A DNA stretch of 64,000 nt from Candidatus Synoicihabitans sp. (GTDB lineage: Bacteria > Verrucomicrobiota > Verrucomicrobiia > Opitutales > Opitutaceae). Made by a program: the position numbers and the translations under genes. Positions 1,482-16,514 of this stretch are shown piece after piece. The stretch spans positions 4,021 to 68,020 of the forward strand of contig CBDBDC010000001.1 of NCBI GenBank assembly GCA_965203585.1, read 5' to 3'. Every line of letters starts with the position of its first letter. Position 1 is the first letter of the stretch. The notes under the pieces were generated by a model. It did no database searches, had not been told where the DNA came from, and saw only the letters and a list, made by a program, of their open reading frames with translations.

Positions 1482-2107
1482 GGCGCCGTCCCGGCATTCT
1501 CGGCGACCACCAGCCACAGCGGGTCACCGGTGTCCGGAGACCGATCGATGAAGCCGACGTTGGCCAGGCCGCCCTCGGTGCAGAAGTGGGCAACCAGCTG
1601 CGCTCGCTGATCGCGGCTCGCCTGGTGAAACGCGAGGATCGCCTTGGTCGGAAACAGCCTGTGCGACATCGCGATACAGATCCTGCCGCCCGGCCGCAGC
1701 ACGCGGGCGACCGATGTCATGACCTCCATGGGTCTGATCAGATACTGGATCGATACCGCAATCAACACCCGGTCGAACGACGCCGGTTCGTAGGGCAGGG
1801 CGGGTTCGTCGTTCAAGTTGTGCACACAGTAGTCGCTGAGCCGGCGGTTGGCCGCTAACTCGGCGTCGTTCATGCCGAGCCCGGACACACGGCCGAGCGG
1901 CTTGTGCTCCGGCAGGTGAGACACCCAGGACGACATCAGATCCAGCACGTCCGCGCCATCTGGAATGAACTCGTCGTAGAACCCGGTCAGTGCGTCAATT
2001 GTCGTCTGATCGATGTGCGTGACGAACCGCAGCTGGACGTAAAAGTTGGCGTCCGGAGTCTGATCCTGGCGCCAGAAGAAATCGGGGTGGAGCTCCAGAT
2101 CACTCAT
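1478..2107 (-). CDS. Class I SAM-dependent methyltransferase
   Basis: Methyltransferase type-11-like core (VLDLMSSWVSHLP ... FDRVLIAVSIQYL ... VLRPGGRICIAMS). Confidence 0.7.
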   Translation of the reverse strand: MSDLELHPDFFWRQDQTPDANFYVQLRFVTHIDQTTIDALTGFYDEFIPDGADVLDLMSSWVSHLPEHKPLGRVSGLGMNDAELAANRRLSDYCVHNLNDEPALPYEPASFDRVLIAVSIQYLIRPMEVMTSVARVLRPGGRICIAMSHRLFPTKAILAFHQASRDQRAQLVAHFCTEGGLANVGFIDRSPDTGDPLWLVVAENAGTAP

Positions 2108-2155
2108 CTCGAGGTTATCCCGCGGCCCGGTCCCGGGACGGATCCGTTGCCCGCG

Positions 2156-3352
2156 TCACTCACCGGAGTACTCGATCAGGGCGCCGTTTGCCTTCAGTGC
2201 GTCGATGTCGTGTTGCGCGACGCCGACCGACTGCAGGATCTCGGCAGAATGCTCACCCAGGCGTGGCGCTGGTGCCCGAATCTCGGCCGGCGTTTCGTCG
2301 AATCTGATCGGCGGCCGCGCCTGACGTACCTGGCCGTGCTCCGCGAAGTCGTAGATGGCGATCGTGTCGTTGGCCAGCACCTGTTCGTGGTCGATCAGTT
2401 CGGTACGTTTCAGCAGTGGCGCCGACGGCACGCCGTTCGCGTCGAGCCTCGGCAGCAGCTCGTCGCGGTCCCACTGGCTGATCTCTTCCGCGGTCATGCG
2501 TTTCCTGAGCTCGGCGTTCCTGAATCGCTCGGTCGTCGTTGCGAATCGCTCGTCATCGATCCATTCGGGTTTGCTCAGCGCCGTGCACATGCCGCGCCAC
2601 TCGGCGTCGGATACTGCGCCGGCGGTAATGTAGCCGGTTTTTGTTTCGTAGATCAGGTCCATCGTGCCCTGATATTTGGTGACGTCGATTTCGTCGCCGA
2701 CAAACGTCAGGCCCGACATGCCTTCCGGCCAGAAGAACGACACCATCGTGTCCAGCATCGACAGCCGCACGTGTTGCCCCTTGCCCATTCGCTCGCGCGC
2801 AAACAGCGCCGACGAGACGGCTTGCGCGGCCGTCAGCGACGTGACCTTGTCGCAGACGATGATCCGGAACATCTTGGGCCGACCCGTTTCACGATCCGCC
2901 TGGATGTCGGTTGCACCGGTCAACGCCTGAATCACGGGGTCGTAGACCCGCTGATTGGCGTACGGTCCGGACTCGCCGAAGCCGCTGATGGACAGGTACA
3001 CCACGTCGGGATTGATTTCGCGCACCATCGGCTCTCCGAACCCCATGCGGTCGATCGCGCCTGGCCTGAAGTTCTGCATGACCACGTCGGCGGTCGCCAG
3101 CAGTTTCATCAGAGGTTCGCGTGTGGCCGGGTCCTTCAGGTCCAGGCACAGGGAACGCTTACCGCGATTACACGAGAAAAAGCCGGCCGTGACGCCGTTG
3201 CGCTTGTTGCCGATGTGCCGCATTTCGTCGCCGCGCGGCGACTCGACCTTGATTACGTCGGCACCCTGATCCGCGAGCATCGCCGCCGCGAACGGGCCGG
3301 ATACCATCGCGGTGAAGTCGACGACGCGAATGCCGTCCAACGGTCCTGGCAT
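2156..3352 (-). CDS. CaiB/BaiF family (class III) CoA-transferase
   Basis: N-terminal hallmark LDGIRVVDFTAMVSGPFAAAMLADQGADVIKVE and a full-length 398-aa family III CoA-transferase-like sequence. Confidence 0.85.
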   Translation of the reverse strand: MPGPLDGIRVVDFTAMVSGPFAAAMLADQGADVIKVESPRGDEMRHIGNKRNGVTAGFFSCNRGKRSLCLDLKDPATREPLMKLLATADVVMQNFRPGAIDRMGFGEPMVREINPDVVYLSISGFGESGPYANQRVYDPVIQALTGATDIQADRETGRPKMFRIIVCDKVTSLTAAQAVSSALFARERMGKGQHVRLSMLDTMVSFFWPEGMSGLTFVGDEIDVTKYQGTMDLIYETKTGYITAGAVSDAEWRGMCTALSKPEWIDDERFATTTERFRNAELRKRMTAEEISQWDRDELLPRLDANGVPSAPLLKRTELIDHEQVLANDTIAIYDFAEHGQVRQARPPIRFDETPAEIRAPAPRLGEHSAEILQSVGVAQHDIDALKANGALIEYSGE

Positions 3353-3492
3353 GGAGACTCCCTCGATTGCTTGGCGGCTGGGCCCGTCAGTTTCCCAGAC
3401 TGCCCGCGCATGTCAAAGCGGGCGCGTGTCCGCTACCCAGTTGCCGAGATTCTTGCGATGCTAGTCCGCTTCGATCGGGTAGGGGGGAACCG

Positions 3493-6400
3493 ATGGCCGT
3501 AACGAGGCTGCTGATTGCCAACCGGGGCGAGATCGCGGTACGCATTGCGCGAGCGGCGCGCGAACTGGATATCACGACAACCGCGGTTTATGCGGAAGAC
3601 GAGGCCGCGTCGCTGCATGTCGTCAAGTGTGATCGATCGGTTGCGCTGGCGGGCGCCGGCGCGCAAGCCTATCTGGACGTTGATGCTCTGGTCCGCGCCG
3701 CACTCGACGACGGCTGCGATGCGCTGCATCCCGGATACGGGTTTCTAAGCGAAAACGCGGCGCTTGCGGACGCCTGCGAAGCCGCCGGCCTGATCTTCGT
3801 GGGGCCGCGGCCCGGGCTGCTGCGGTTGTTCGGCGACAAGGTCCGTGCCCGCGCGGCTGCAAGCGATGCTGGCGTGCCGGTGCTGGACGGCACGACGGCG
3901 GCCACGTCGCTCGACGAATGCCGGAACTTTTTTGCCGCGCATCCGGCAGGCGTCATGATCAAGGCCGTGGCTGGAGGCGGTGGCCGTGGTATGCGCGCCG
4001 TAACCGACGCGGACGCGCTCGATGACGCGTACGAGCGTTGCCGTTCCGAGGCGCGGGCTGCGTTCGGTGACGACGAGGTCTACGTCGAAGAGCTCATCAG
4101 CGATGCGCGCCACATCGAGGTGCAGATCGTCGGCGACGGCGACCGGGTGGTGCATCTGGGCGAACGTGACTGTTCCATTCAGCGCCGGCATCAGAAGATC
4201 GTCGAGATTGCGCCGTCACCGGGTTTATCGGCCGAGATGCGCGACACCGTTGCGCAAGCGGCCGTCGGGTTTGCGTCGGCGGTTGGTTACAGCAGTCTCG
4301 GCACGTTCGAGTTCCTGGTCACCGATTCGCGGGTCGCGTTCATCGAGGCCAACGCCCGGCTGCAGGTCGAGCACACGATCACCGAGCAGGTCACCGGTGT
4401 CGACCTGGTTCGCAGTCAGCTGCTGCTCGCCGGCGGCGGCCGGTTGGGAGCCGGCGATCTTGCGCTGCCGGAAGCTGTGCCTGACGGATTTGCCGTACAG
4501 GTGCGCGTCAACATGGAGCGAATGACCGAAACCGGCGACGTCGTCCCGTCCGGCGGCGTACTGACTGCATTCGAACCGCCGAGCGGACCGGGCGTGCGCA
4601 CCGACACGTTCGGATATGCCGGATACGCGACAAGCCCCCGATACGACTCGCTGCTTGCAAAGGTCATCGGGCATCGTCCGGGCGGCAGCTACGCTGACGC
4701 ACTGAAACGTACCTGTCAGGCACTCCAGGAATTTCGTGTCGACGGCGTAGCCACCAACATCGACTTTGCGCTCGCGGTGCTGACACACGAGGCGGTGGTC
4801 GCGGGCAATTTCAACACGCGCTTTGTAGACGACCACATTGCCGCTCTCGTCAACGGCGTGGCGCACGTCAGGCGCCACTTCCCGGCGGCGCCTGAAGCGC
4901 CGGCAGGTACCGCAGCCGGCGCGACACCGTCGCTGGCCGGCGCGCGGATCGACAGCTCGGATCCGCTGGCGGTGCTCGATTACGGTCAGGTGCAGGCGCG
5001 CGCAGAGGCGCCTGCCGCCGCTGCGTCAGCGGTCGCGCCGGCGGTCGCCGCCGCACCGGACGGCACCGTCCCGGTGACCGCGCCGTTGCAGGGCACCATC
5101 GTGTCACTGGACGTTGCCGAGCAGGATGTCATTGCGGCAGGACAGACCGTCGCGATCATGGAATCGATGAAAATGGAGCACGAGGTTCGCGCCGAGGTTT
5201 CGGGCACGGTCCGGTCCGTTGGCGTTGCGGCGGGTGACACTGTTTACGAGGGGCACGCGCTGTTGTTCGTCGAAGCGGGTGATGTCGACGTAGACGTTGC
5301 CACGACCGGAGAAGACGTCGACCTCGACTACATCCGTCCGGACCTGGATGAGGTTGCGAAGCGCCACGACAAGACACTGGACGCCGCGCGACCCGAAGCG
5401 GTTGCGCGGCGACACGGAAAGAACCAGCGAACGGCGCGCGAAAACGTCGAGCATCTGTGCGACCCCGGCTCGTTCGTCGAATACGGCTCGCTGGTGCTTG
5501 CCGCGCAGCGCCGCCGCCGCAGTATCGAAGACCTGATCGACAAGACCCCGGCTGACGGCATGATTACCGGAGTCGGAGCGATCAATGGCGATCTCTTCGG
5601 TGACCCGGCCGCGCGCTCGGTGGTCATGGCGTACGACTACACGGTGCTCGCCGGCACGCAGGGCGGCCAGAACCATCGCAAGACCGATCGCATGATCGAG
5701 GTCGCCGAGTCCGGGACCATGCCGATGGTCCTGTTTGCCGAAGGCGGCGGCGGTCGACCCGGCGACACCGACGGCATTGGCACGAGCGAGCAGCGCACGT
5801 TCTCGCGGTTTGCCCAGCTGTCCGGCCTGGTGCCAATGATCGGAATCACGTCAGGCCGCTGTTTTGCCGGCAACGCATCGCTGCTCGGTTGCTGCGACGT
5901 GATCATCGCAACCGCTGGCTCGAACATCGGCATGGGCGGTCCGGCGATGATCGAAGGCGGCGGGCTCGGCATCTATGCGCCGGAAGAGATCGGGCCGATG
6001 GACGTGCAGGTGCCGAATGGCGTGGTCGACGTGCTGGTCGACGACGAAACGGCGGCTGTGGACGCGGCTAAGCGCTACCTCTCCTATTTCCAGGGACGGC
6101 TGCCTGCGTGGGAGGCGCCCGACCAGCGCGCGATGCGGCGCATAGTTCCTGAAAACCGGTTGCGCGTTTACGAAGTTCGCGACGTCGTCGCGACGCTCGC
6201 CGATGAAGGCTCGATCATGGAAATCCGTCCGGAATTCGGCACCGGCATGATCACATCGCTGATCCGGGTCGAAGGCCGAGCTGTTGGCGTCATCGCCAAC
6301 AATCCCAGACATCTCGGCGGCGCGATAGACAGTGACGGCGCCGACAAGGGCGCGCGGTTCATGCAGCTGTGCGACGCCTTCGACGTTCCGCTGCTCTATC

Positions 6401-6879
6401 TGTGCGACACGCCCGGCATCATGGTTGGTCCCGAAATCGAACGAACGGCGCTCGTGCGTCACTCATCCCGCATGTTCGTCATCGGTGCCAATCTGTCGGT
6501 GCCGTTTTTCACGGTCATACTGCGCAAGGCATATGGACTCGGCGCCATTGCGATGGCCGGCGGCAGCTACAAGGTCCCCACGTTCAGCGTGTCGTGGCCA
6601 ACGGGCGAATTCGGGGGCATGGGACTCGAGGGGTCCGTGAAACTCGGGTATCGCAACGAACTCGCGGCCATCGAGGACCCGCAGGCGCGCGCCGCGAAAT
6701 ACGAGGAAATGGTTGCCCGCGCGTACGAGTCGGGCAAGGCGTTGAACCACGCGTCGCTGTTCGGCGTCGACGACACGATCGATCCCGCGGATACGCGGTG
6801 GTGGCTCGCAAGCCTGCTGAATTCGATCCGCACCGAACCGCGGCGGGGTAAAAAGCGTGCCGCGATAGATGCCTGGTAG
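3493..6879 (+). CDS. Single-chain acyl-CoA carboxylase (biotin carboxylase + BCCP + carboxyltransferase fused)
   Basis: Biotin carboxylase N-terminus (RLLIANRGEIAVRIARAAREL). BCCP motif AIMESMKMEHEV with the biotinyl-Lys codon at 5170-5172. Carboxyltransferase domain (YDYTVLAGTQGGQNHRKTDR ... FAEGGGGRPGD). The ATG at 3493 follows the SD-like AGGGGGGAA; the track ORF starts at 3367. Confidence 0.85.
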   Translation: MAVTRLLIANRGEIAVRIARAARELDITTTAVYAEDEAASLHVVKCDRSVALAGAGAQAYLDVDALVRAALDDGCDALHPGYGFLSENAALADACEAAGLIFVGPRPGLLRLFGDKVRARAAASDAGVPVLDGTTAATSLDECRNFFAAHPAGVMIKAVAGGGGRGMRAVTDADALDDAYERCRSEARAAFGDDEVYVEELISDARHIEVQIVGDGDRVVHLGERDCSIQRRHQKIVEIAPSPGLSAEMRDTVAQAAVGFASAVGYSSLGTFEFLVTDSRVAFIEANARLQVEHTITEQVTGVDLVRSQLLLAGGGRLGAGDLALPEAVPDGFAVQVRVNMERMTETGDVVPSGGVLTAFEPPSGPGVRTDTFGYAGYATSPRYDSLLAKVIGHRPGGSYADALKRTCQALQEFRVDGVATNIDFALAVLTHEAVVAGNFNTRFVDDHIAALVNGVAHVRRHFPAAPEAPAGTAAGATPSLAGARIDSSDPLAVLDYGQVQARAEAPAAAASAVAPAVAAAPDGTVPVTAPLQGTIVSLDVAEQDVIAAGQTVAIMESMKMEHEVRAEVSGTVRSVGVAAGDTVYEGHALLFVEAGDVDVDVATTGEDVDLDYIRPDLDEVAKRHDKTLDAARPEAVARRHGKNQRTARENVEHLCDPGSFVEYGSLVLAAQRRRRSIEDLIDKTPADGMITGVGAINGDLFGDPAARSVVMAYDYTVLAGTQGGQNHRKTDRMIEVAESGTMPMVLFAEGGGGRPGDTDGIGTSEQRTFSRFAQLSGLVPMIGITSGRCFAGNASLLGCCDVIIATAGSNIGMGGPAMIEGGGLGIYAPEEIGPMDVQVPNGVVDVLVDDETAAVDAAKRYLSYFQGRLPAWEAPDQRAMRRIVPENRLRVYEVRDVVATLADEGSIMEIRPEFGTGMITSLIRVEGRAVGVIANNPRHLGGAIDSDGADKGARFMQLCDAFDVPLLYLCDTPGIMVGPEIERTALVRHSSRMFVIGANLSVPFFTVILRKAYGLGAIAMAGGSYKVPTFSVSWPTGEFGGMGLEGSVKLGYRNELAAIEDPQARAAKYEEMVARAYESGKALNHASLFGVDDTIDPADTRWWLASLLNSIRTEPRRGKKRAAIDAW

Positions 6880-6905
6880 CACTGACGAACCCAAGGAGAG
6901 AAAGG

Positions 6906-7820
6906 ATGCAGCTGACTGTTGATTTTCCGAGCGTGAGCTACCGTGACGGCCCCGACGGCATCATCCGGCTGGCGCAGGCGATCGAAGCCATCGGGTATAC
7001 GGAACTCGACATGTTCGACCACGTGATCATGGGTTACCCGATACCGGAACGGACCGGGTTGCGGTACCCGGCGAAGATGCCGATTCTGGAAGCATTGATG
7101 ACCCTGTCGTTTGTCGCGAGCGCAACCAGCACGATCCGGCTCGGTACCGAGGTGCTCGTGTTGCCGCAGCGCCAGCCTGTGCTGGTCGCCAAACAGGTCA
7201 GCACGCTCGACACGCTGTCCGGCGGCCGGGTGCGGCTCGGCGTCGGTGTCGGCTGGCAGGAGTCGGAGTATGACGCGCTGGAAGAACCGTTCGGCAACCG
7301 AGGCCGGCGCATGAACGAGGCGATCGATGTGCTGCGCGCCTGCTTTCGCGACCAGCAGATCGATTACGGCGGCGATCACTACTCGATCACTGCAATGGCG
7401 ATGGAGCCGAAACCGCCGCAGGGTGCCGCGCTGCCGATCTGGATCGGCGGTACTGCGCCGGCGAGTCTTGCCCGTGTCGGTACGCACGGCGACGGTTGGC
7501 TGGCGACCGCGTTCAGGGACGCCGACAAGGTCAAGGCGTGCCGCGAGGTGATTGAGGAAGCGGCCATCGGCGCGGGCCGCGATCCCGCCGCCATTGGCTA
7601 CCAGAGCATGTTCGACGTGCCACCGACCGACGAAGGCGGCAAGGACTTCTACGCTGACATGGATCGCGTCGGCGCACGCGCGTTGCAGCTGAGAGAACAG
7701 GGCTTCGACTGGGCAGCCGTGAACGTAACCGCGGTGTTTCAGGCCGGGTCGCGCAGCATCGACGCGATGATCGAGGCGCTCGGCAACATTCACGAGCGTG
7801 TCATGGCGGAGGCCGGCTGA
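6906..7820 (+). CDS. Luciferase-like monooxygenase (LLM) family oxidoreductase
   Basis: LLM-like sequence (LGTEVLVLPQRQPVLVAKQVSTLDTLSGGRVRLGVGVGW). GGAGAGAAAGG SD upstream. Cofactor class (FMN or F420) cannot be decided from sequence alone. Confidence 0.7.
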   Translation: MQLTVDFPSVSYRDGPDGIIRLAQAIEAIGYTELDMFDHVIMGYPIPERTGLRYPAKMPILEALMTLSFVASATSTIRLGTEVLVLPQRQPVLVAKQVSTLDTLSGGRVRLGVGVGWQESEYDALEEPFGNRGRRMNEAIDVLRACFRDQQIDYGGDHYSITAMAMEPKPPQGAALPIWIGGTAPASLARVGTHGDGWLATAFRDADKVKACREVIEEAAIGAGRDPAAIGYQSMFDVPPTDEGGKDFYADMDRVGARALQLREQGFDWAAVNVTAVFQAGSRSIDAMIEALGNIHERVMAEAG

Positions 7821-8686
7821 TGGCCGCGCCGCAGACACCCGCGGCACGACTGAGACACCGGCTCGACTCGCCGGGCGTCGTGTTTGCTCCGCTCGCGCTC
7901 GACGCGATCACCGCACGGCTTGCGGAAGCTGCCGGATTTCAGGCGGGATACGTCAGCGGCGGCGCGCTCGGCTACGCCCACGCGGTCAGCGAGGCGTTGC
8001 TGACTCTCGACGAGATCTGCGATGTCACTCGCCACGTTACAGCCAGGAGCGCGTTGCCGATTGTCGTGGACGGGGGCGTCGGCTTCGGTGATCCGGTGCA
8101 CGCGACCCGGATGATGTGGGCGCTCGAACAGGCGGGAGCAGCGGGAGTCGAGATTGAAGATCAGGTCGCGCCCAAACGCGTGAGCCACCATCGAGGCATC
8201 GAGCACCTGATCTCCGAGGTCGACATGGTCGCGAAAATCGAGCACGCGGCCGCGGCCCGGCGGGACGACGACTTCGTGATCATTGCGCGCACCGGCGCGG
8301 TACACAACGAGTCGTTCGAGCACGCGGTGGCGCGCGGCCGCGCGTACCACGCCGCCGGCGCCGATCTGGTGATGCTGATGCCGGGGGACGAGGAACAATG
8401 GCGCGCGGCGCCCGCGGAAATCGACGCGCCGCTGGCGACTATTGCCGCGCTGGATGCGCGAACGGCCGCCGACTGGGATGCGCTGGGATGGCGGTTGGTC
8501 ATCGACCCGTTCACGGCGCAGGTGCTGATGGTCGATGTGGTGCGTGCAGCGTACCAGTCGTTTGCCGCGACCGGCGCCACGGGTCAGACTGTGAAAAACT
8601 TGTTCAGCGTGTATCGGGAGCTGCCCGGCATCGCCGGACTCGAAGAACTCTACGCCATCGAAGATCGTACGACGGAAAAGACCTGA
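7820..8686 (+). CDS. Isocitrate lyase / PEP mutase family protein (methylisocitrate lyase / oxaloacetate decarboxylase-like)
   Basis: APLALDAITARLAEAAGFQAGYVSGGAL ... PIVVDGGVGFGDP ... GAAGVEIEDQVAPKR matches the ICL/PEP-mutase fold signature. The start overlaps the previous stop (TGATG). Confidence 0.7.
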   Translation: MAAPQTPAARLRHRLDSPGVVFAPLALDAITARLAEAAGFQAGYVSGGALGYAHAVSEALLTLDEICDVTRHVTARSALPIVVDGGVGFGDPVHATRMMWALEQAGAAGVEIEDQVAPKRVSHHRGIEHLISEVDMVAKIEHAAAARRDDDFVIIARTGAVHNESFEHAVARGRAYHAAGADLVMLMPGDEEQWRAAPAEIDAPLATIAALDARTAADWDALGWRLVIDPFTAQVLMVDVVRAAYQSFAATGATGQTVKNLFSVYRELPGIAGLEELYAIEDRTTEKT

Positions 8687-10232: not shown

Positions 10233-10430
10233 GATGCTCTCCGTTGGCTCACACGGTGTTGGCGTCGCGCCTGCCAGGCAGCACGATCCACCATTCGATT
10301 TAATCAGGTTATTCTTTTGCGTGACACAGATGAAGGTGATAACCGGCCAGCATGACCGTCTCGGGTGCCCACACGCGGTACCCGACCAGAGGCTGGTCAC
10401 ATCCGCGGAAATAGCAGGAAGGGGAGCGGA

Positions 10431-11657
10431 ATGACTGATGCGCACGAAGGCGGCGAGGACTATCTGTTTGGCGGTCTGAAAGTGCTCGATGTTGGCACCT
10501 GGATCGCCGCACCGGTTGCGACGACGATGCTTGCCGACTATGGCGCCAGCGTCATCAAGGTGGAAATGCCCGGGCATGGTGACGCCTACCGGCACTTTTC
10601 GGGGATGCCGGGCACGCCCACCGCCGACGTCAACTACTGCTGGCTCATGGACGGTCGCAACAAGCGCTCCATAACGCTGGACCTGAAAAGCGGCGCCGGT
10701 ATCAGGATCCTGCACCAGCTGATCGGCGAGTGCGATGTCTACGTCACCAACCACCCACTGCCGCTGCGGCGCGAGCTGGGCCTGACGTATGACGACCTCG
10801 CGGCGCTCAATCCGAAGCTGATCTATGCATCGTTGACCGCATATGGAGAGCAGGGTCCGGAACGAGATCGGGAAGGGTTCGATCTGGTTGCGTACTGGTC
10901 CCGGCCGGCGCTGATGGATCTCGTTCGCAGTTCGCCCGAAACGCAGCCCGCGCACTCGTTACCAGGCATGGGCGATCACCCGACCGCGGTGTCGATGTAC
11001 GCGAACATCGTCACGGCGCTGTTGCGCCGCGAACGTACCGGCAAGGGCAGCCACGTACACACGTCCCTGATTGCGAACGGGCTGTGGTCGGCGTCCTGCA
11101 TCGCGCAGGCGCGGCTGTGTAACGCGGATTTTTCGGCATTCCGCCACCCGCAGCACATGGCGTTTACCCGCGGACTGTATCAGACGAGCGACAGCCGCTG
11201 GCTGCAGTTCACGATGGTCCGAACGCCCGAGGAGCAGCAGGCGCTGCTCGCAGCCGTCGGCGGACTGCACCTGCTGGAGGATCCCCGGTTCGCCACGGCG
11301 GAAGACCGTTTTGCGAATGGCGCGGAGATGGTCGCTGCTGTACGGCCGCTGCTGGCCGCGCGGTCGAGCGAGGAGTGGATGGCCGTGTTCCGCGACGCTG
11401 GCGTCCCGGCGGCGCTGATCGGGGTGCTGGATGATCTGCCGCACGATCCTCAGATCGCGATCAACGACATGGCGCCGGCACCGGTGGACGACGTAGGCGC
11501 GCAACGCGTGATCAAACACCCGTTGAACATCGAAGGTCTGCCGCGGGTCGGGGTCACCCGGGCGCCGGAGATCGGCGAACACAGCGTCGCGGTGTTGACC
11601 GAGCTCGGCTACACGGACGAGCAGATTGCCGAGCTCGCCCTCGACGACGTGATTTAA
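10431..11657 (+). CDS. CaiB/BaiF family (class III) CoA-transferase
   Basis: LKVLDVGTWIAAPVATTMLADYGASVIKVEMPGHGD hallmark. The ATG at 10431 follows GGGGAGCGGA. Confidence 0.85.
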   Translation: MTDAHEGGEDYLFGGLKVLDVGTWIAAPVATTMLADYGASVIKVEMPGHGDAYRHFSGMPGTPTADVNYCWLMDGRNKRSITLDLKSGAGIRILHQLIGECDVYVTNHPLPLRRELGLTYDDLAALNPKLIYASLTAYGEQGPERDREGFDLVAYWSRPALMDLVRSSPETQPAHSLPGMGDHPTAVSMYANIVTALLRRERTGKGSHVHTSLIANGLWSASCIAQARLCNADFSAFRHPQHMAFTRGLYQTSDSRWLQFTMVRTPEEQQALLAAVGGLHLLEDPRFATAEDRFANGAEMVAAVRPLLAARSSEEWMAVFRDAGVPAALIGVLDDLPHDPQIAINDMAPAPVDDVGAQRVIKHPLNIEGLPRVGVTRAPEIGEHSVAVLTELGYTDEQIAELALDDVI

Positions 11658-12823
11658 CCGGCGGCGGCCGGAAACACCCGCAGGAAATTCTCGCTGTAGA
11701 ACCTGGTGCGCACCGACTCGTCGACGTTGCCGAGCGATTGCTCGAAACGCCCCAGCGGATTGCGTCCGCCTTCGGGATGTGGGTAGTCGCTGGAGAACAG
11801 GTACAGATCCGGACTCGACTGCGCGACGAGTTTACCGATGTCCTCGTAAACGTACGGGGTGAACGCGAACTGGGTCGCGATCTGTTCCGACGGCTTGCGT
11901 GACAGCGCGGCCAGCTCCACATCGCTCTTGCGCCAGATGTCGACGATCCAGTCCAGCCGATCCAGCATGGCCGGGACCCAGCCGGCGCCGAGTTCGACGC
12001 TGGCGCCGGTCAGCGTAGGGAACCGTTCGAAGACGCCGTCCAGCACCATCATGCTCAGGAATCGTTCCGCCATGTGGTGCACGCTCGTCATGTCCTTGCC
12101 GCGGACGTTTTCCCCGCCGCCGAGCCAGTCCTTCGGCAGCGGCCGGCCGTTGTTCATCCACGCTTTCGAAACCTGAAGTGCATCGCCGCCGATGTGAATG
12201 ACGAACGGGATGCCAGCCTCCTGCAGGCGCGCCCAGAACGGGTCCAGGTCGTCGTGCCCGGGAGAGCGCCCGCCGCAGTCGCGATGCGGAACCCACACCG
12301 CGCCGCAGCCGTCGGCCAGCACCGTGTCGAGTTCGGCGAGTGCGCGTGCCGGGTCGTCGAGCGTGATCGCGGCTACGCCCATCAGCCGCTCGTCGGCCGC
12401 GCAGAACGCGTGCATCGCGCGGTTGTGCGCGCGGGCGGCGCCGTAGCGGACGTCCAGATCCGTGCGAGTGGAAAACACCATGCCTTCGCTGACAGACGCG
12501 AACACGAGCTGCTTGCGGAAACCAAGCAGGTCCAGTACGCGGCTGCGCTCCTCGGCGTTGAACGCGCCGGGCGCGTCGTAGCCTTTCGGGCCGCGCAGAA
12601 TGTCGTCGCCCATCTCCAGCGCTTTCTGCACATCGGCTTCCAGGTGCCGGCCGCCCTGCGCGACCAGCGTGTCCAGATTGCGCTGCAACCCGGAGTTGGC
12701 GCCGAAGTCGATCGGCGGCAGCGCGTCGCGAATGTGCGGGTCTGCAAAGTCGGTCAGGAACGTTGGCAGTTCCATGATGTGGCTGTCTGCGTCGTAGAGC
12801 ACGCGGTCCGCTGCGTAGGTCAT
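11654..12823 (-). CDS. Amidohydrolase-2 family metal-dependent hydrolase/decarboxylase
   Basis: DADSHIMELP near the N-terminus and FSSDYPHPEGG near the C-terminus, typical of the ACMSD/amidohydrolase_2 family. The stop overlaps the convergent CoA-transferase stop by 4 nt. Confidence 0.75.
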   Translation of the reverse strand: MTYAADRVLYDADSHIMELPTFLTDFADPHIRDALPPIDFGANSGLQRNLDTLVAQGGRHLEADVQKALEMGDDILRGPKGYDAPGAFNAEERSRVLDLLGFRKQLVFASVSEGMVFSTRTDLDVRYGAARAHNRAMHAFCAADERLMGVAAITLDDPARALAELDTVLADGCGAVWVPHRDCGGRSPGHDDLDPFWARLQEAGIPFVIHIGGDALQVSKAWMNNGRPLPKDWLGGGENVRGKDMTSVHHMAERFLSMMVLDGVFERFPTLTGASVELGAGWVPAMLDRLDWIVDIWRKSDVELAALSRKPSEQIATQFAFTPYVYEDIGKLVAQSSPDLYLFSSDYPHPEGGRNPLGRFEQSLGNVDESVRTRFYSENFLRVFPAAAG

Positions 12824-12969
12824 ATTGCCTCCTCAATCCTTTGAATGCCGTTGTGCGAGCGTAGGCGAATCGACGGTGCCGGGCAAATACCGGTTCGTCC
12901 GGCCGGCGCGTGCACTGCAAGCCGGCAATGCGATACCCTGTGCGCTGCCGTGGAAAACGGGAGGGAGGC

Positions 12970-13446
12970 ATGGCGGCCAAGCTCGAGCCCCGGGATCAGT
13001 TCCCGGATCTGGCGCTGAACGTCGCGGGCGGGGGCGCCGTGGCGCTACCCGGCGACATTCAGACCGACTATGCGCTGGTGCTCTTTTATCGCGGCCACTG
13101 GTGACCGTTCTGTCGCCGTTTGTTAAACGGCTATCAGGAGCGTCTGGCACAGTTCAGGGATCTCGGTGTGTCTCTGTTTGCCGGCACCGTCGACTCCGAG
13201 GAGGACACCCTCGAGGTCGGCAAGGACCTGGACTTTCCGGTAGCGTACGGCATGACTCGCGCGGACGGGGACGCAATCGGCGCCTGGTGGGAAGAACGCC
13301 GCGATCACATTCAACCGTCCGAGTTCCTGTTGCGCGGCGACGGCCGAGTCCTTGCATCCACGTACAGCAATTCTCCGGTTGGCCGCATGGATCCGGGCGA
13401 AACTGCCAGGCTCATCGACTTCATCGCGTCGATGGCCCGCAAGTGA
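12970..13446 (+). CDS. Peroxiredoxin-like (AhpC/TSA, thioredoxin-fold) selenoprotein; in-frame TGA 13102-13104 read as Sec
   Basis: Track ORFs 12910-13104 and 13120-13446 share a frame and are separated only by TGA. Read through, they give LVLFYRGHW-U-PFCRRLLNGYQERLAQFRDLGVSLFAG, where the TGA sits where AhpC/TSA proteins carry the peroxidatic Cys (W-C-P-x-C). GGGAGGGAGG SD before the ATG at 12970. A hairpin lies 10 nt after the TGA. Confidence 0.75.
13115..13131 (+). promoter_or_regulatory. Candidate bacterial SECIS hairpin for the peroxiredoxin-like gene
   Basis: GCCGTTT-GTT-AAACGGC, a perfect 7-bp stem (or 6 bp with a UGUUA loop). It starts 10 nt after the UGA, and the G/U-containing apical loop is about 18 nt downstream. 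Hand-folded only. Confidence 0.5.
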
Positions 13447-13488
13447 TGATGGTCGAGCCTCAGCGGCAGCGCCGGTAGTAGCTGCGCG

Positions 13489-14709
13489 ATGCTGGACGCG
13501 GACGTACCCGAACACCTGGCGACACTCGAGTGTCCGGTTTACGAGCCGACCGCCGCAGTTGCGGGAACCGCGCTCGACGCGAGGCGCGTCGCGCTGATCT
13601 CGTCCGCCGGACTGATGCATCAGGGTGATCCGCCGTTCGGCTTCGGTGCCGCCGATTACCGGGTCATCGACGCCGACTCGCCGGTACCCGTGTTGATGAC
13701 GCACGTATCCACGAACTTCGACCGTACCGGTTTCGCGCAGGACGCCAACGTCGTACTACCACTCGACCGGCTGCGGGAGCTGGTGGCGGACGGCGTCATT
13801 GGCAGCGTCGCCCGGTTTCACTATTCGTTCATGGGCGCAACCGCGCCGGACCTGTTCGAGGAACCTGTCACCAGGGTGGCGGGGCAGCTTGCTGCCGACG
13901 AAGTCGACCTGGCACTGTTGATACCCGTGTGACCGCTCTGTACGCGCGCCGTGTGCGGGCTGGCTCACTACCTCGAACGCGCGGGTGTTCCGACCGTCGT
14001 CATCGGTCTGATACCACAGCATGTGCGGCGCATGATGCCTCCGCGGGCGCTGCTGGTACCGTTCGAACTCGGGCGGCCAATTGGCCCCCCCGGGGCGCCC
14101 GCGCTGCAGCGCCGCGTGCTGACAGCGGCCCTCGAGCTCGGCGCGACTGCCCCTGCCGACCCGGTCATCGACACGTTCGAACTCGAGCCCGGAGAACGAC
14201 TGCCAGCAGCGCAGACCCAAGGATGGGCGTGTCCAGTATCGTTCGCGACCGCCGTGGACGACGAGGCGTCCACCGCAGAGCGATTGGCTGCGGAGGTACA
14301 GGCGCTTGCACCATGGTATGCGCAGGCCGTCCGCGAACGTGGCCGCACCACGGCCGGCGCATCGGGGCTCGATTTCGAAGCGATTGCGCGCTGGCTTGGC
14401 GATCTGAACGACGTTGCCGGCGCTGACGACAAGGCGCCCGAAGCGGGGCAGGACACCGCGCCGGCTGACCTTCCGTTTGGCCTGGCGCAGACGCTCAAGC
14501 TGGCAGTCGAAGATCTGAAAGCGTTTTACGTCGAAGCGGCAACCACCCAGCCCACGTCAGCGAGCGCGCCGGTCCTGGACTGGATGTGGAACGACACGCT
14601 GCTTGCGCGCGTGCTCCGCACGCTCGCGGCGCGGCTGAGCGACCATCCGGATCGTCAGCTTGCGCTTTACGCAAGTCTGACGTTCGTGCCGCGGGAACGG
14701 ATGGCATAG
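13489..14709 (+). CDS. GrdB/PrdB-like (glycine/sarcosine/betaine/D-proline reductase component B family) selenoprotein; in-frame TGA 13930-13932 read as Sec
   Basis: Track ORFs 13489-13932 and 13951-14709 share a frame. Read through: VDLALLIPV-U-PLCTRAVCGLAHYLERAGVPTVVIGL. The N-terminal part (HVSTNFDRTGFAQDANVVLPLDRLRELVADGVIGSVARFHYSFMG) resembles the selenoprotein B family as I recall it. Confidence 0.7.
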
Positions 14710-14783
14710 CCCGCGTCGGTTGGTGCGGCGGATCCTTGGAGCTGAAACTTTGCAACTGAATCATGTCACTGGAGGAGCAGACG

Positions 14784-15317
14784 ATGATTGATTACCACGA
14801 TCCACGGGCGGAGACCGCCGGCGAGGTTGAGCCATATGCGCTCAGCGTCGACCTGGGCCGGCTCAACGAGGCGCGTATCGGATTTCTGGCAAACGGCTTC
14901 CCCGACTCCGATCGATTTCTGGAGAAGGTCGCCGAGGTCATGAGCGAGCGCCTCGACGGCGTTCAACACGTGCACGAAAACAAAGGCAACGCATCGATCC
15001 CGGCACCGGATGTGCTGCTCGATTCGATGCAGAACCAGTGCCAGGCGGCAATCGCCGCCTATGGTCACTGAGGCAGCTGCACAACCGGCACCGTGCGTGA
15101 CGGCATTGCACTGGCTCGAAGGGGAGTGCCCGTGGTGGCGCTTGTTACCGAGGAATTCTGGCCGCAGGGTGACTTCGTGGCTGCGTCGCTCGGTATGCCG
15201 GACGTTCCACGGGTGAAGCTGCCGCATCCTGTTGCGGGTACCGGCGAAGCGAACCTGCGCCGCGTCGCGGAAGCGATCGTTCCGGAGATCATTGCCGCTC
15301 TGGAAGGCGCCCGGTGA
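14784..15317 (+). CDS. UGSC-motif selenoprotein (small GrdB-like redox module); in-frame TGA 15069-15071 read as Sec
   Basis: Track ORFs 14763-15071 and 15093-15317 share a frame. Read through: AAIAAYGH-U-GSCTTGTVRDGIALARRGVPVVALVT. The ATG at 14784 follows GGAGGAG. The Sec loop resembles that of the preceding gene. Confidence 0.65.
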
Positions 15318-16405
15318 GCGGAATGTTGCAGTCGGCAGACGAAGCTGCTGCGCTCGAGAACCTGCACGCGCTCGGCTGCACTGATGGACTGCCCGTCGTG
15401 GTTCCAACCGTGGACCGCGTCGCGCGCATGGTACTCGCGACCGGGTACGACGCCGACATGGTGCTCGGAGAAATGGGACCCGGCAACGGGATTGCGACCG
15501 TCGAACAGGTTGCGGTCGCCGCGGTCATGGCGGGATGTCTACCCGACTACATGCCGCTCGTCGTCGCCGCCGTGCGCGCAGTGATTGCGCCGGAGTTCGA
15601 TCTTACCGAGATGCAGTCGACGACACATTGCACGGCGCCGCTCGTGATCGTCAACGGCCCGGCGCGCCAGACCTGCGGTCCCGTTGCGTCAGGATTTGGC
15701 GCGCTCGGACCGGGTCACCGAGCCAACGCCAGCATCGGCAGGGCGCTCAGGCTTGCAATGATGAACATCGGCGGCGCCCGACCCGGGACCTCCGACATGG
15801 CGCTGCTCGGCCACCCGGGAAAATTCACCTACTGCCTGGCGGAAGACGAGGAAACCAGCCCGTTTCCGCCGCTGCATGTAGCGCGCGGTTTCGACCCGGA
15901 CGACAGCGTCGTGACCGTCATCGGCGCGGAAGCACCCCATTCGGTGATCTTCTCGGGCGACGCCGACAATCCCGAGTCGTACCGCGGGTTGATCCACGCG
16001 TTGGCGGTTGGCCTCGCAAACCTGGCGACCAACAATGCCGTTCTGCGGCACGGGTCCGCAACGGTGATTCTGAATCCCGAGCACGCCGACGTGCTGCATG
16101 CCGCCGGTCTGGGGCGCGCGGATATTGCCCGGGCGCTTCACGAGTCCTGCGTTCACTCGATATCCGATCTTGCCGAAGTCGCGCCCGCGTTTGCTGGCCG
16201 CGACGGCGACGACGAACGCAAGCACTGTTTTGACGGTCCCGACGACATCCTCGTTCTGGTCGCGGGCGGTAGCGGGCTGTACTCGATGGTGATGCCGTCG
16301 TGGTGCGCCGGGGCGCACAACAACTCGGCGGTCAGTGTGACGGTGGACGTCGATCAGTTCTGCGAGGTGCCGGGGCTCGGCGAGGCGCTGACGACGGACG
16401 TCTGA
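15314..16405 (+). CDS. Conserved-looking hypothetical protein (363 aa), translationally coupled to the UGSC gene
   Basis: GTGA start/stop overlap at 15314-15317 (alternative ATG at 15323). Long ORF with high third-position GC. I recognise no family (motifs LHALGCTDGLPVVVP, QSTTHCTAPLVIVNGP, GHPGKFTYCLAEDE). Confidence 0.6.
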   Translation: MSGMLQSADEAAALENLHALGCTDGLPVVVPTVDRVARMVLATGYDADMVLGEMGPGNGIATVEQVAVAAVMAGCLPDYMPLVVAAVRAVIAPEFDLTEMQSTTHCTAPLVIVNGPARQTCGPVASGFGALGPGHRANASIGRALRLAMMNIGGARPGTSDMALLGHPGKFTYCLAEDEETSPFPPLHVARGFDPDDSVVTVIGAEAPHSVIFSGDADNPESYRGLIHALAVGLANLATNNAVLRHGSATVILNPEHADVLHAAGLGRADIARALHESCVHSISDLAEVAPAFAGRDGDDERKHCFDGPDDILVLVAGGSGLYSMVMPSWCAGAHNNSAVSVTVDVDQFCEVPGLGEALTTDV

Positions 16406-16514
16406 ACGTCTGCGGCTGCATTGCCGGCGCCAGCTAGCGAAAAAGCGCTTACAATCGACATACGTTCCGGGCACAGCAGTGTGACCTGGGTCTCACTACC
16501 GTGGTGCGGGAGAT

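Follow-up and report, generated by a model that had tools for sequence, protein, structure and literature searches.

Here we describe a small selenoprotein gene of the UGSC family in a 64,000-nucleotide stretch of Candidatus Synoicihabitans sp. DNA (contig CBDBDC010000001.1, positions 4,021 to 68,020; hereafter the window), together with the gene directly downstream, which has 363 codons and is here called P363. The UGSC gene itself is an ordinary new member of a known family, and across the loci compared it forms a fixed gene pair with P363. The reading we favour, at somewhat better than even, is that UGSC is the selenocysteine (Sec)-bearing redox subunit of a two-gene module with P363. An earlier reading, made from the letters of the window without database searches (the sequence-only reading), had looked instead to the adjacent GrdB/PrdB-like selenoprotein gene upstream (the GrdB-like gene) and proposed that the two proteins pass electrons or a covalent intermediate between their Sec loops. 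Its account of the gene, of the motifs and of the likeness of the two loops was largely right, but the functional cross-talk with the GrdB-like neighbour is unsupported.

The UGSC gene and its selenocysteine codon

On sequence evidence the window gene is a genuine Sec-form member of the UGSC family, because coding conservation crosses the in-frame UGA, family members with cysteine (Cys) at that position carry GH-C-GSC-T, and the product matches the Pfam UGSC family. With Sec entered as Cys, the window protein matches Pfam PF24696 ("UGSC family") over residues 4-174 of 177 with 156.3 bits (cutoff 25, E 1.1e-45), and scores 109.8 bits, below the equivalog cutoff of 125, against NCBIfam NF041046 ("UGSC family (seleno)protein"). 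These two models are the database family that the sequence-only reading had named by its motif, and its function is still unassigned. A database search returned 343 relatives, the full-length ones of about 180 residues. The motif GH-U-GSC-T occupies residues 94-100, in columns that are invariant or nearly so among 33 sequences, and the homologues begin at the same aligned residue as the window protein, which is 34-54% identical to the aligned full-length homologues and 56% identical (BLASTP) to one of them, P0001. Thirty of the 32 aligned homologues carry GH-C-GSC-T; the exceptions are P0006, which is without the motif, and P0001, which has W at the Sec position. The GH-W-GSC-T of P0001 presumably arises from a UGA translated with a code in which UGA means Trp. 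The window gene thus shares with its family a full-length Pfam match, the position of the motif and the size, in a family where Sec and Cys forms both exist; it differs in nothing essential, and what sets it apart is an unusual neighbourhood and an NCBIfam score just under the cutoff.

The family of PF24696 and NF041046 is the "UGSC-containing protein" of Zhang and Gladyshev. Under that name it has been listed since the mid-2000s as a protein of unknown function with a "likely Trx-like" (thioredoxin-like) fold (PMC2398784; PMC1976440). In the Global Ocean Sampling survey it was among the most abundant selenoprotein families, with 255 Sec and 21 Cys sequences, and a UGSC/Unknown_1 fusion is shown there (PMC2398784); reviews of 2022 and 2026 still give its function as unknown (PMC13188914, PMC9312934). 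In the databases the Sec forms are filed as split open reading frames (ORFs), an N-terminal half of 97 residues cut at the UGA and a second piece of 67-78 residues.

Selenocysteine is the most likely reading of the UGA, aided by a putative selenocysteine insertion sequence (SECIS), a hairpin whose 19-nt core, CCGGCACCGUGCGUGACGG, begins 13 nt after the UGA and presents the GU of its loop at +24/+25, counting from the U of the UGA. Among the matches listed, the exact 19-mer recurs in 86 of 100 distinct Sec-form genes, and a codon-by-codon comparison of these 100 genes finds positions +16 to +34 almost invariant. The entropy of the third codon positions in the Sec forms is 0.54 bits at +17, 0.08 at +20, 0.14 at +23, 0.08 at +26, and 0 at both +29 and +32, whereas 20 Cys forms compared at these positions give 1.0-1.74 bits and most third positions of the Sec forms outside +5 to +32 have about 1.6-1.9 bits; the synonymous sites are frozen in the Sec forms only. 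Bacterial SECIS elements are stem-loops some 11-13 nt after the UGA with an apical GU 16-37 nt downstream, and the core has this geometry. With its 13-nt spacer and with the GU of a five-nucleotide loop some 24 nt past the UGA, it comes close to the element of Escherichia coli fdhF. It shares with elements of that type a short stem-loop beginning 11-13 nt after the UGA, a GU in a small apical loop about 23-25 nt downstream and a stem interrupted by an unpaired position; here a G/A mismatch replaces the bulged U, and the sequence itself is unlike that of fdhF. A nucleotide-invariant element of this kind would give annotators a simple means of joining the split UGSC ORFs.

The sequence-only reading had placed a hairpin with a bulged U slightly further 3', at 15091-15114 (15091-15096 with 15108-15114, 11-nt loop GUGACGGCAUU, -4.5 kcal/mol). 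The pairing exists, overlaps the 19-nt core and lies in the right place, but its 3' arm covers positions that differ freely among the 100 Sec-form genes (entropy 0.66-1.93 bits, in most cases 1.3-1.9), so it is not the conserved structure, a role that belongs to the 19-nt core. Around that core a longer stem can be drawn (Table 1), for which 86 sequences give weak support: native flanks fold 0.7 kcal/mol better than swapped flanks, by about 4 standard deviations. Minimum-free-energy folding of single sequences was uninformative in this DNA of 65% GC, the region folding no better than its shuffles (z 0.09), and a scan of 12500-16500 with Rfam for a SECIS returned no SECIS family and one chance match to a CRISPR repeat (E 3). 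The GrdB-like gene has a probable SECIS of its own with a common CGUG loop; three of four other GrdB-like Sec genes read GCGCGC[CGUGN]GCGCGC, and the fourth (L156) has the window's GCGCGC[CGUGU]GCGGGC. The hairpins of the two genes have in common a CGUGN apical loop at a similar distance from the UGA and one mismatch each (G/G in one, G/A in the other). The CGUGN loop may be the SelB recognition motif of the Proteobacteria that carry these genes.

The fold of UGSC was modelled with AlphaFold on a Cys-form relative (P0002) with 31 sequences. The predicted local distance difference test score (pLDDT) of 94.4 and predicted template modelling score (pTM) of 0.89 describe a confident model of five beta-alpha units, in which Sec/Cys96 comes directly after strand 88-94, at the N-terminus of helix 97-111. 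In a Foldseek search the best PDB matches were TIR, flavodoxin, lumazine synthase and similar three-layer folds, with template modelling (TM) scores up to 0.5, and no thioredoxin fold stood among the 50 matches listed. By this model UGSC is a single flavodoxin-like alpha/beta domain with Sec96 and Cys99 at the N-terminus of its third helix, and the thioredoxin-like fold of the literature is not supported, given the five-stranded model and the lack of a thioredoxin fold among those 50 matches. As in flavodoxin, TIR domains, CheY-type receivers and lumazine synthase, the domain stacks five beta-alpha units in three layers and has its functional residues along the C-terminal edge of the sheet, whereas a cofactor-binding or phosphorylation motif is lacking in UGSC and the redox UxxC is specific to it. 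The loops that follow strands 1 and 5 hold further nearly invariant residues, N37, F39 and D41 and the segment L146-P-H-P-V-x-G; these presumably lie at the same sheet edge as Sec, which suggests a pocket or docking surface there.

The partner gene P363

Among the matches listed, UGSC has a P363 homologue (42-77% identical) as its immediate downstream neighbour, in the same orientation, wherever at least 150 nt of downstream sequence is available, in 94 of 94 Sec-form loci and in 20 of 20 with the Cys form; all 114 were found from the UGSC side. In the opposite direction, a search outward from P363 in one complete genome of 4.1 Mb again led to a truncated UGSC ORF immediately upstream. The median gap between the two genes is 11-26 nt, in the window they overlap, and they are probably translationally coupled. 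One metagenome contig (L146) carries two such pairs, at 2096-4110 and 5291-6900, of which the second is divergent (29-34% identity) and reversed in order, a P363-like gene being followed by a UGSC selenoprotein with GD-U-GSC-S. Even after duplication, then, the two families remain together.

P363 is one of a very large family that fills more than 6169 clusters at 90% identity, every one of them annotated as hypothetical, in which its closest relatives are about 70-80% identical among themselves. The protein has no sequence match in Pfam, NCBIfam or the PDB even at lenient thresholds, and lenient Pfam and NCBIfam scans of 25 P363 proteins returned scattered noise only. Conserved in at least 97% of 74 sequences (42-72% identical to the window protein) are C75, C174 and C350, TDGLP at 23-27, TTH at 103-105, H188 and H257. 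Its AlphaFold model is moderate (pLDDT 79, pTM 0.84), and Foldseek matches it weakly (TM 0.26) to class I fumarate hydratases, Toblerone-fold hydrolases and PurM-like proteins; at that score we did not adopt a fumarase-, Toblerone- or PurM-type fold for this model. Profile comparison by hhalign likewise rejected kinship of P363 with the GrdB-like protein, its C-terminal extension included (score 19, P 0.16), and with UGSC (score 16, P 0.2). Being unrelated to both, P363 offers no Rosetta-stone link between them.

These properties of P363 bear on an alternative in which UGSC serves as an electron, sulfur or selenium carrier for a metal or iron-sulfur (Fe-S) centre, P363 being an enzyme like the [4Fe-4S] hydro-lyases, to be reduced, repaired or loaded by UGSC. 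Exactly three Cys of P363 are invariant across the 74 sequences, its best weak structural match is to the class I fumarate hydratases, which hold a three-Cys [4Fe-4S] cluster (7xky_A, E 1e-4), and several marine loci have a class I fumarase gene next after P363. But the structural match has a root-mean-square deviation above 15 A besides its low TM score, P363 has no sequence match to any Fe-S hydro-lyase family, and three Cys are not specific to a cluster. We consider this alternative unlikely, though worth keeping in view.

The strictness of the pairing speaks against a second alternative, in which UGSC would be a free-standing general thiol-disulfide oxidoreductase with a thioredoxin-like fold and many targets. 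The UxxC at a helix N-terminus would suit such a protein, and a peroxiredoxin (Prx)-like selenoprotein gene lies 1.3 kb upstream in the window. The confident flavodoxin-like model, without a thioredoxin fold among the 50 Foldseek matches listed, is against it, however, and so is the absence of a Prx-like gene from the other loci listed; one-to-one pairing with P363 in 114 of 114 listed loci points to a dedicated rather than a general role. We judge a general oxidoreductase to be quite improbable.

Resemblance to selenoprotein B and the linkage survey

The sequence-only reading gave the two Sec loops exactly as translated, as GH-U-GSC-T-TGTVRDGIALA-RRGVP-VVA for UGSC and PV-U-PLC-T-RAVCGLAHYLE-RAGVP-TVV for the GrdB-like protein, and their common pattern is U-x-x-C-T, an 11-residue spacer and R-x-G-V-P. 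A pairwise BLASTP comparison of the two proteins is not significant (25 residues, E 0.2) and is too weak by itself. Aligned as profiles by hhalign, 33 UGSC and 22 GrdB-like proteins give a score of 31 (P 0.0012-0.0018, probability 15-20%) over a core of 38 columns, in which UGSC 84-122 corresponds to GrdB-like 137-174 with Sec on Sec; the strand-UxxC-helix-strand unit is aligned in the register drawn by the sequence-only reading. Reversed profiles score 18, and 200 column shuffles have a mean of 14.7, a standard deviation of 2.8 and a maximum of 26.2, none of them reaching 31; shuffles in blocks of ten columns reach it once in 200, and the unrelated P363 profiles stay at the scores given above. 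A profile alignment, the check proposed at the outset, thus finds a modestly significant likeness above column shuffles. Longer alignments (mact 0.05 or 0.01) have low confidence outside the core, with no convincing extension past about 40-70 residues, and the score collapses in global mode, so the similarity is local.

The same direction is indicated by a lenient scan in which each of the 33 UGSC proteins was compared with the full set of 18,950 NCBIfam models. TIGR01917, glycine reductase selenoprotein B, is a weak second match in 18 of the 33 (best E 1.5e-4), and further weak matches are to TIGR01918, a model of the GrdB/PrdB superfamily, in ten, GrdH in nine, GrdF in four and PrdB in two. 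The window protein matches positions 332-398 of TIGR01917, the Sec region, with its residues 81-153 (E 0.16, 10.9 bits against a cutoff of 602); it lies below the cutoff of every selenoprotein B family and has no match to Pfam GRDB. Searched against the sequences of the PDB, neither UGSC nor the GrdB-like protein nor P363 had a meaningful match, and no GrdB or PrdB structure came up. The profiles compared consist almost entirely of Cys forms, so the likeness of the proteins is not a by-product of a shared SECIS. Taken together, the two loops do resemble each other, and a plausible source of the likeness is a strand-UxxC-helix-strand unit that UGSC and the selenoprotein B family would owe to a remote shared ancestor. 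The relation of the two neighbours is one of family-level remote similarity, and the resemblance of UGSC to the adjacent gene is explained by its similarity to the Sec-bearing part of GrdB, GrdF, GrdH and PrdB in general. The description of the loops as related is supported at this remote level only, by the profile alignment and the NCBIfam scan, and fails, with a BLASTP E of 0.2, as a claim of recent paralogy or of specific kinship between the two.

UGSC and selenoprotein B (GrdB, GrdF, GrdH and PrdB; TIGR01918, PF07355) both place a U-x-x-C where a strand passes into a helix and have a G-[VI]-P strand after it. As with PrdB and PrdA, a small Sec subunit is encoded beside a larger partner without Sec. 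The differences are considerable: UGSC has half the size of PrdB and is without its N-terminal part, P363 is unrelated to the pyruvoyl proproteins GrdE and PrdA, and the UGSC hosts are marine and soil Proteobacteria (presumed aerobic), whereas the Grd and Prd systems are those of amino-acid-fermenting anaerobes. Among the flanking ORFs scanned in the window there are no GrdA, GrdC or PrdC genes and no match to a Grd or Prd family.

Linkage of UGSC and GrdB-like genes was surveyed in loci from three sources: 20 Cys-form loci, with Novosphingobium and Sphingobium among the carriers (L015 and L020), from a scan of one genome per species, which caught Cys forms only; Sec-form loci reached through look-up of their truncated products; and at least 120 metagenome stretches found with a DNA pattern for A-x-G-H-UGA-G-S-C-T. 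After removal of duplicates at least 110 Sec-form and 20 Cys-form loci were available. Where 1.3 kb or more of upstream sequence is available, which is so in 60 Sec-form and 18 Cys-form loci among the matches listed, no GrdB-like gene lies near UGSC, nor does one in any of the 20 and 14, respectively, that have 5 kb or more, and none of the other loci has the Prx-like gene. Conversely, no UGSC gene lies within 6 kb of any of five other GrdB-like selenoprotein genes on long contigs, whose neighbours differ from case to case. The window is the only one of 130 loci listed in which GrdB-like and Prx-like genes stand immediately upstream of UGSC. By these counts UGSC has no conserved link to GrdB-like genes, and the GrdB-like gene is not a conserved partner of UGSC.

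The proposal that UGSC and the GrdB-like protein are paralogous redox modules handing on electrons or a covalent intermediate, as GrdB gives a carboxymethyl group to GrdA, has to be set against this survey. The two genes share a strand and are separated by 74 nt that hold no terminator; the spacing from U-x-x-C-T to R-x-G-V-P is equal and the profile likeness goes beyond chance; and the same ocean samples hold both families in abundance (PMC2398784). Co-occurrence, by which the sequence-only reading had itself suggested judging the idea, is nil among the loci listed outside the window, however (0 of 78 UGSC loci and 0 of 5 GrdB-like loci), UGSC has an invariant partner of its own in P363, the identity of the two proteins is far too low for recent paralogy, and UGSC is not GrdA-like, since GrdA carries CxxU (PMC13188914). 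We now give the proposal very little credence.

A proposed two-gene redox module and its setting

In the reading we prefer, UGSC would be the small Sec-carrying catalytic or redox subunit and P363 the larger, substrate-binding one, by analogy with PrdB/PrdA and GrdB/GrdE. In PrdB and GrdB, Sec attacks a carbon of the substrate, and the selenoether is then resolved by the neighbouring Cys, which leaves a Se-S bond (PMC13188914). In UGSC, Sec would attack the substrate, or a group held on P363, Cys99 would resolve the adduct to a Se-S bond, and a cellular thiol system would then re-reduce that bond. As P363 is unrelated to PrdA and GrdE, the chemistry of the UGSC/P363 pair may differ considerably from this scheme.

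Several points weigh against a Sec-bearing redox subunit working with P363. P363 shows no similarity to the pyruvoyl subunits PrdA and GrdE or to the Gly_reductase family, which leaves the selenoprotein B analogy resting on the UGSC side. The hhalign probability for that side is just 15-20%, and CheY-type response-regulator models also match six UGSC members weakly (best E 2e-4); such matches show fold-level noise, and common ancestry with selenoprotein B is on that account plausible rather than proven. For the SECIS, no covarying base pair was found, because its pairs never vary, and RNAalifold prefers an alternative pairing of +9 to +13 with +24 to +28, by which the conservation, running on to +34, is not explained. 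The linkage sample is not exhaustive, and the evidence obtained from the P363 side is the one complete 4.1-Mb genome. Finally, a lineage-specific link between UGSC and the GrdB-like gene may exist, no terminator or promoter having been found between the four genes from the Prx-like gene to P363.

A bolder form of the favoured reading holds that UGSC and P363 make up an unrecognised two-subunit selenoenzyme, widespread among marine and soil Proteobacteria (presumed aerobic), whose small subunit derives from the Sec unit of GrdB/PrdB and has been re-paired with a new, three-Cys and perhaps Fe-S, substrate-binding subunit. We offer it tentatively, as possible but with the balance tilted against it; if true, it would be the first functional handle on a selenoprotein that ranks among the most abundant in the ocean. 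The searchable literature makes no mention of the P363 partner, of a flavodoxin-like fold or of a remote tie to selenoprotein B for UGSC, and these three findings together make the question of its function experimentally approachable.

That UGSC is no selenoprotein at all, its UGA being a true stop between two short unrelated ORFs or within a pseudogene, has next to no probability: gene callers split UGSC in all databases, and the window holds no tRNA-Sec and no sel genes among the 25 of about 50 ORFs scanned (all in the first 44 kb), but frame, family match and conservation continue past the UGA, nearly all Cys-form orthologues have Cys at that codon, the downstream synonymous sites are frozen specifically in Sec forms, and two more selenoprotein genes with in-frame UGA lie alongside.

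Those two genes and UGSC follow one another on the + strand in the order Prx-like, GrdB-like, UGSC, with P363 next, and no terminator-like or promoter-like site was seen between the four. We prefer to see in this row a local gene cluster that may be co-transcribed, and not a conserved functional unit. In the Prx-like gene a 7-bp hairpin with a GUU loop (13115-13131) begins 11 nt after the UGA. The C-terminal ~190 residues of the GrdB-like protein (about 14134-14709) match no family; a profile search found 3688 relatives at E<=0.001, and the post-UGA piece of the protein alone corresponds to more than 100 database clusters, filed as hypothetical proteins of 240-250 residues.

Table 1. Features of the window discussed in the text (positions count from the first letter of the window)
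Feature	Position	Strand	Details
Family III CoA-transferase gene	2156-3352	-	
Luciferase-like gene	6906-7820		
PEP-mutase-like (phosphoenolpyruvate mutase-like) gene	7820-8686		
Family III CoA-transferase gene	10365-11657	+	
Peroxiredoxin-like selenoprotein gene	12970-13446	+	UGA 13102-13104; W-U-PFC; Pfam AhpC-TSA E 1.5e-13
GrdB/PrdB-like selenoprotein gene	13489-14709	+	UGA 13930-13932; PrdB TIGR04483 92.6 bits (cutoff 300); Pfam GRDB 31.5 bits
Probable SECIS of GrdB-like gene	13944-13960	+	GCGCGC[CGUGU]GCGGGC; CGUG loop common with the UGSC element
Ribosome-binding site GGAGGAG	14771-14777	+	6 nt 5' of the UGSC ATG; read from the sequence
UGSC-family selenoprotein gene	14784-15317	+	177 codons; ATG 14784, TGA 15315-15317; Sec codon 96; U-G-S-C motif
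UGA, most likely selenocysteine codon	15069-15071	+	single in-frame UGA; aligned with a nearly invariant (>=90%) Cys of Cys-form homologues
Extended stem round the likely SECIS core	15069-15118	+	lower helices 15069-15080 with 15107-15118; constrained fold -20.9 kcal/mol
Likely SECIS core	15085-15103	+	19 nt; folds as CCG.CAC[CGUGC]GUG.CGG, -4.9 kcal/mol
P363 gene	15314-16405	+	363 codons; GTG start overlaps the UGSC stop (GTGA); alternative ATG 15323

Further upstream, the window and the loci L021, L033, L045, L079 and L085 share recurrent genes for a family III CoA-transferase and a luciferase-like monooxygenase ahead of the UGSC-P363 pair; of the 33 Sec-form loci among the matches listed whose upstream sequence reaches 3 kb or more, 10 have the CoA-transferase. 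Between 2156 and 12823 the window also holds genes for a cytochrome P450 and an amidohydrolase_2 protein, and at 3367-6879 a 1170-residue ORF that joins biotin carboxylase, biotinyl carrier and carboxyltransferase parts, as in a one-chain acyl-CoA carboxylase. On several marine gammaproteobacterial contigs (among them L021 7650-9170 and L033 8691-10211) a class I fumarase gene (Fumerase and Fumerase_C domains) lies directly 3' of P363, and a pyridine-nucleotide disulfide oxidoreductase gene comes after the fumarase, on the opposite strand. The CoA-transferase, monooxygenase and fumarase neighbours do no more than hint at organic-acid or acyl-CoA metabolism.

Of the five GrdB-like selenoprotein genes examined elsewhere, one stands on a 674-kb contig from the Joint Genome Institute (JGI) sample 3300072015, where it adjoins an Ndh-SelD fusion gene (Pyr_redox_2 and AIRS domains) and has selB and selA 1-3 kb away. 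This arrangement suggests that GrdB-like, Ndh-SelD and selA/selB genes gather in selenium-related islands.

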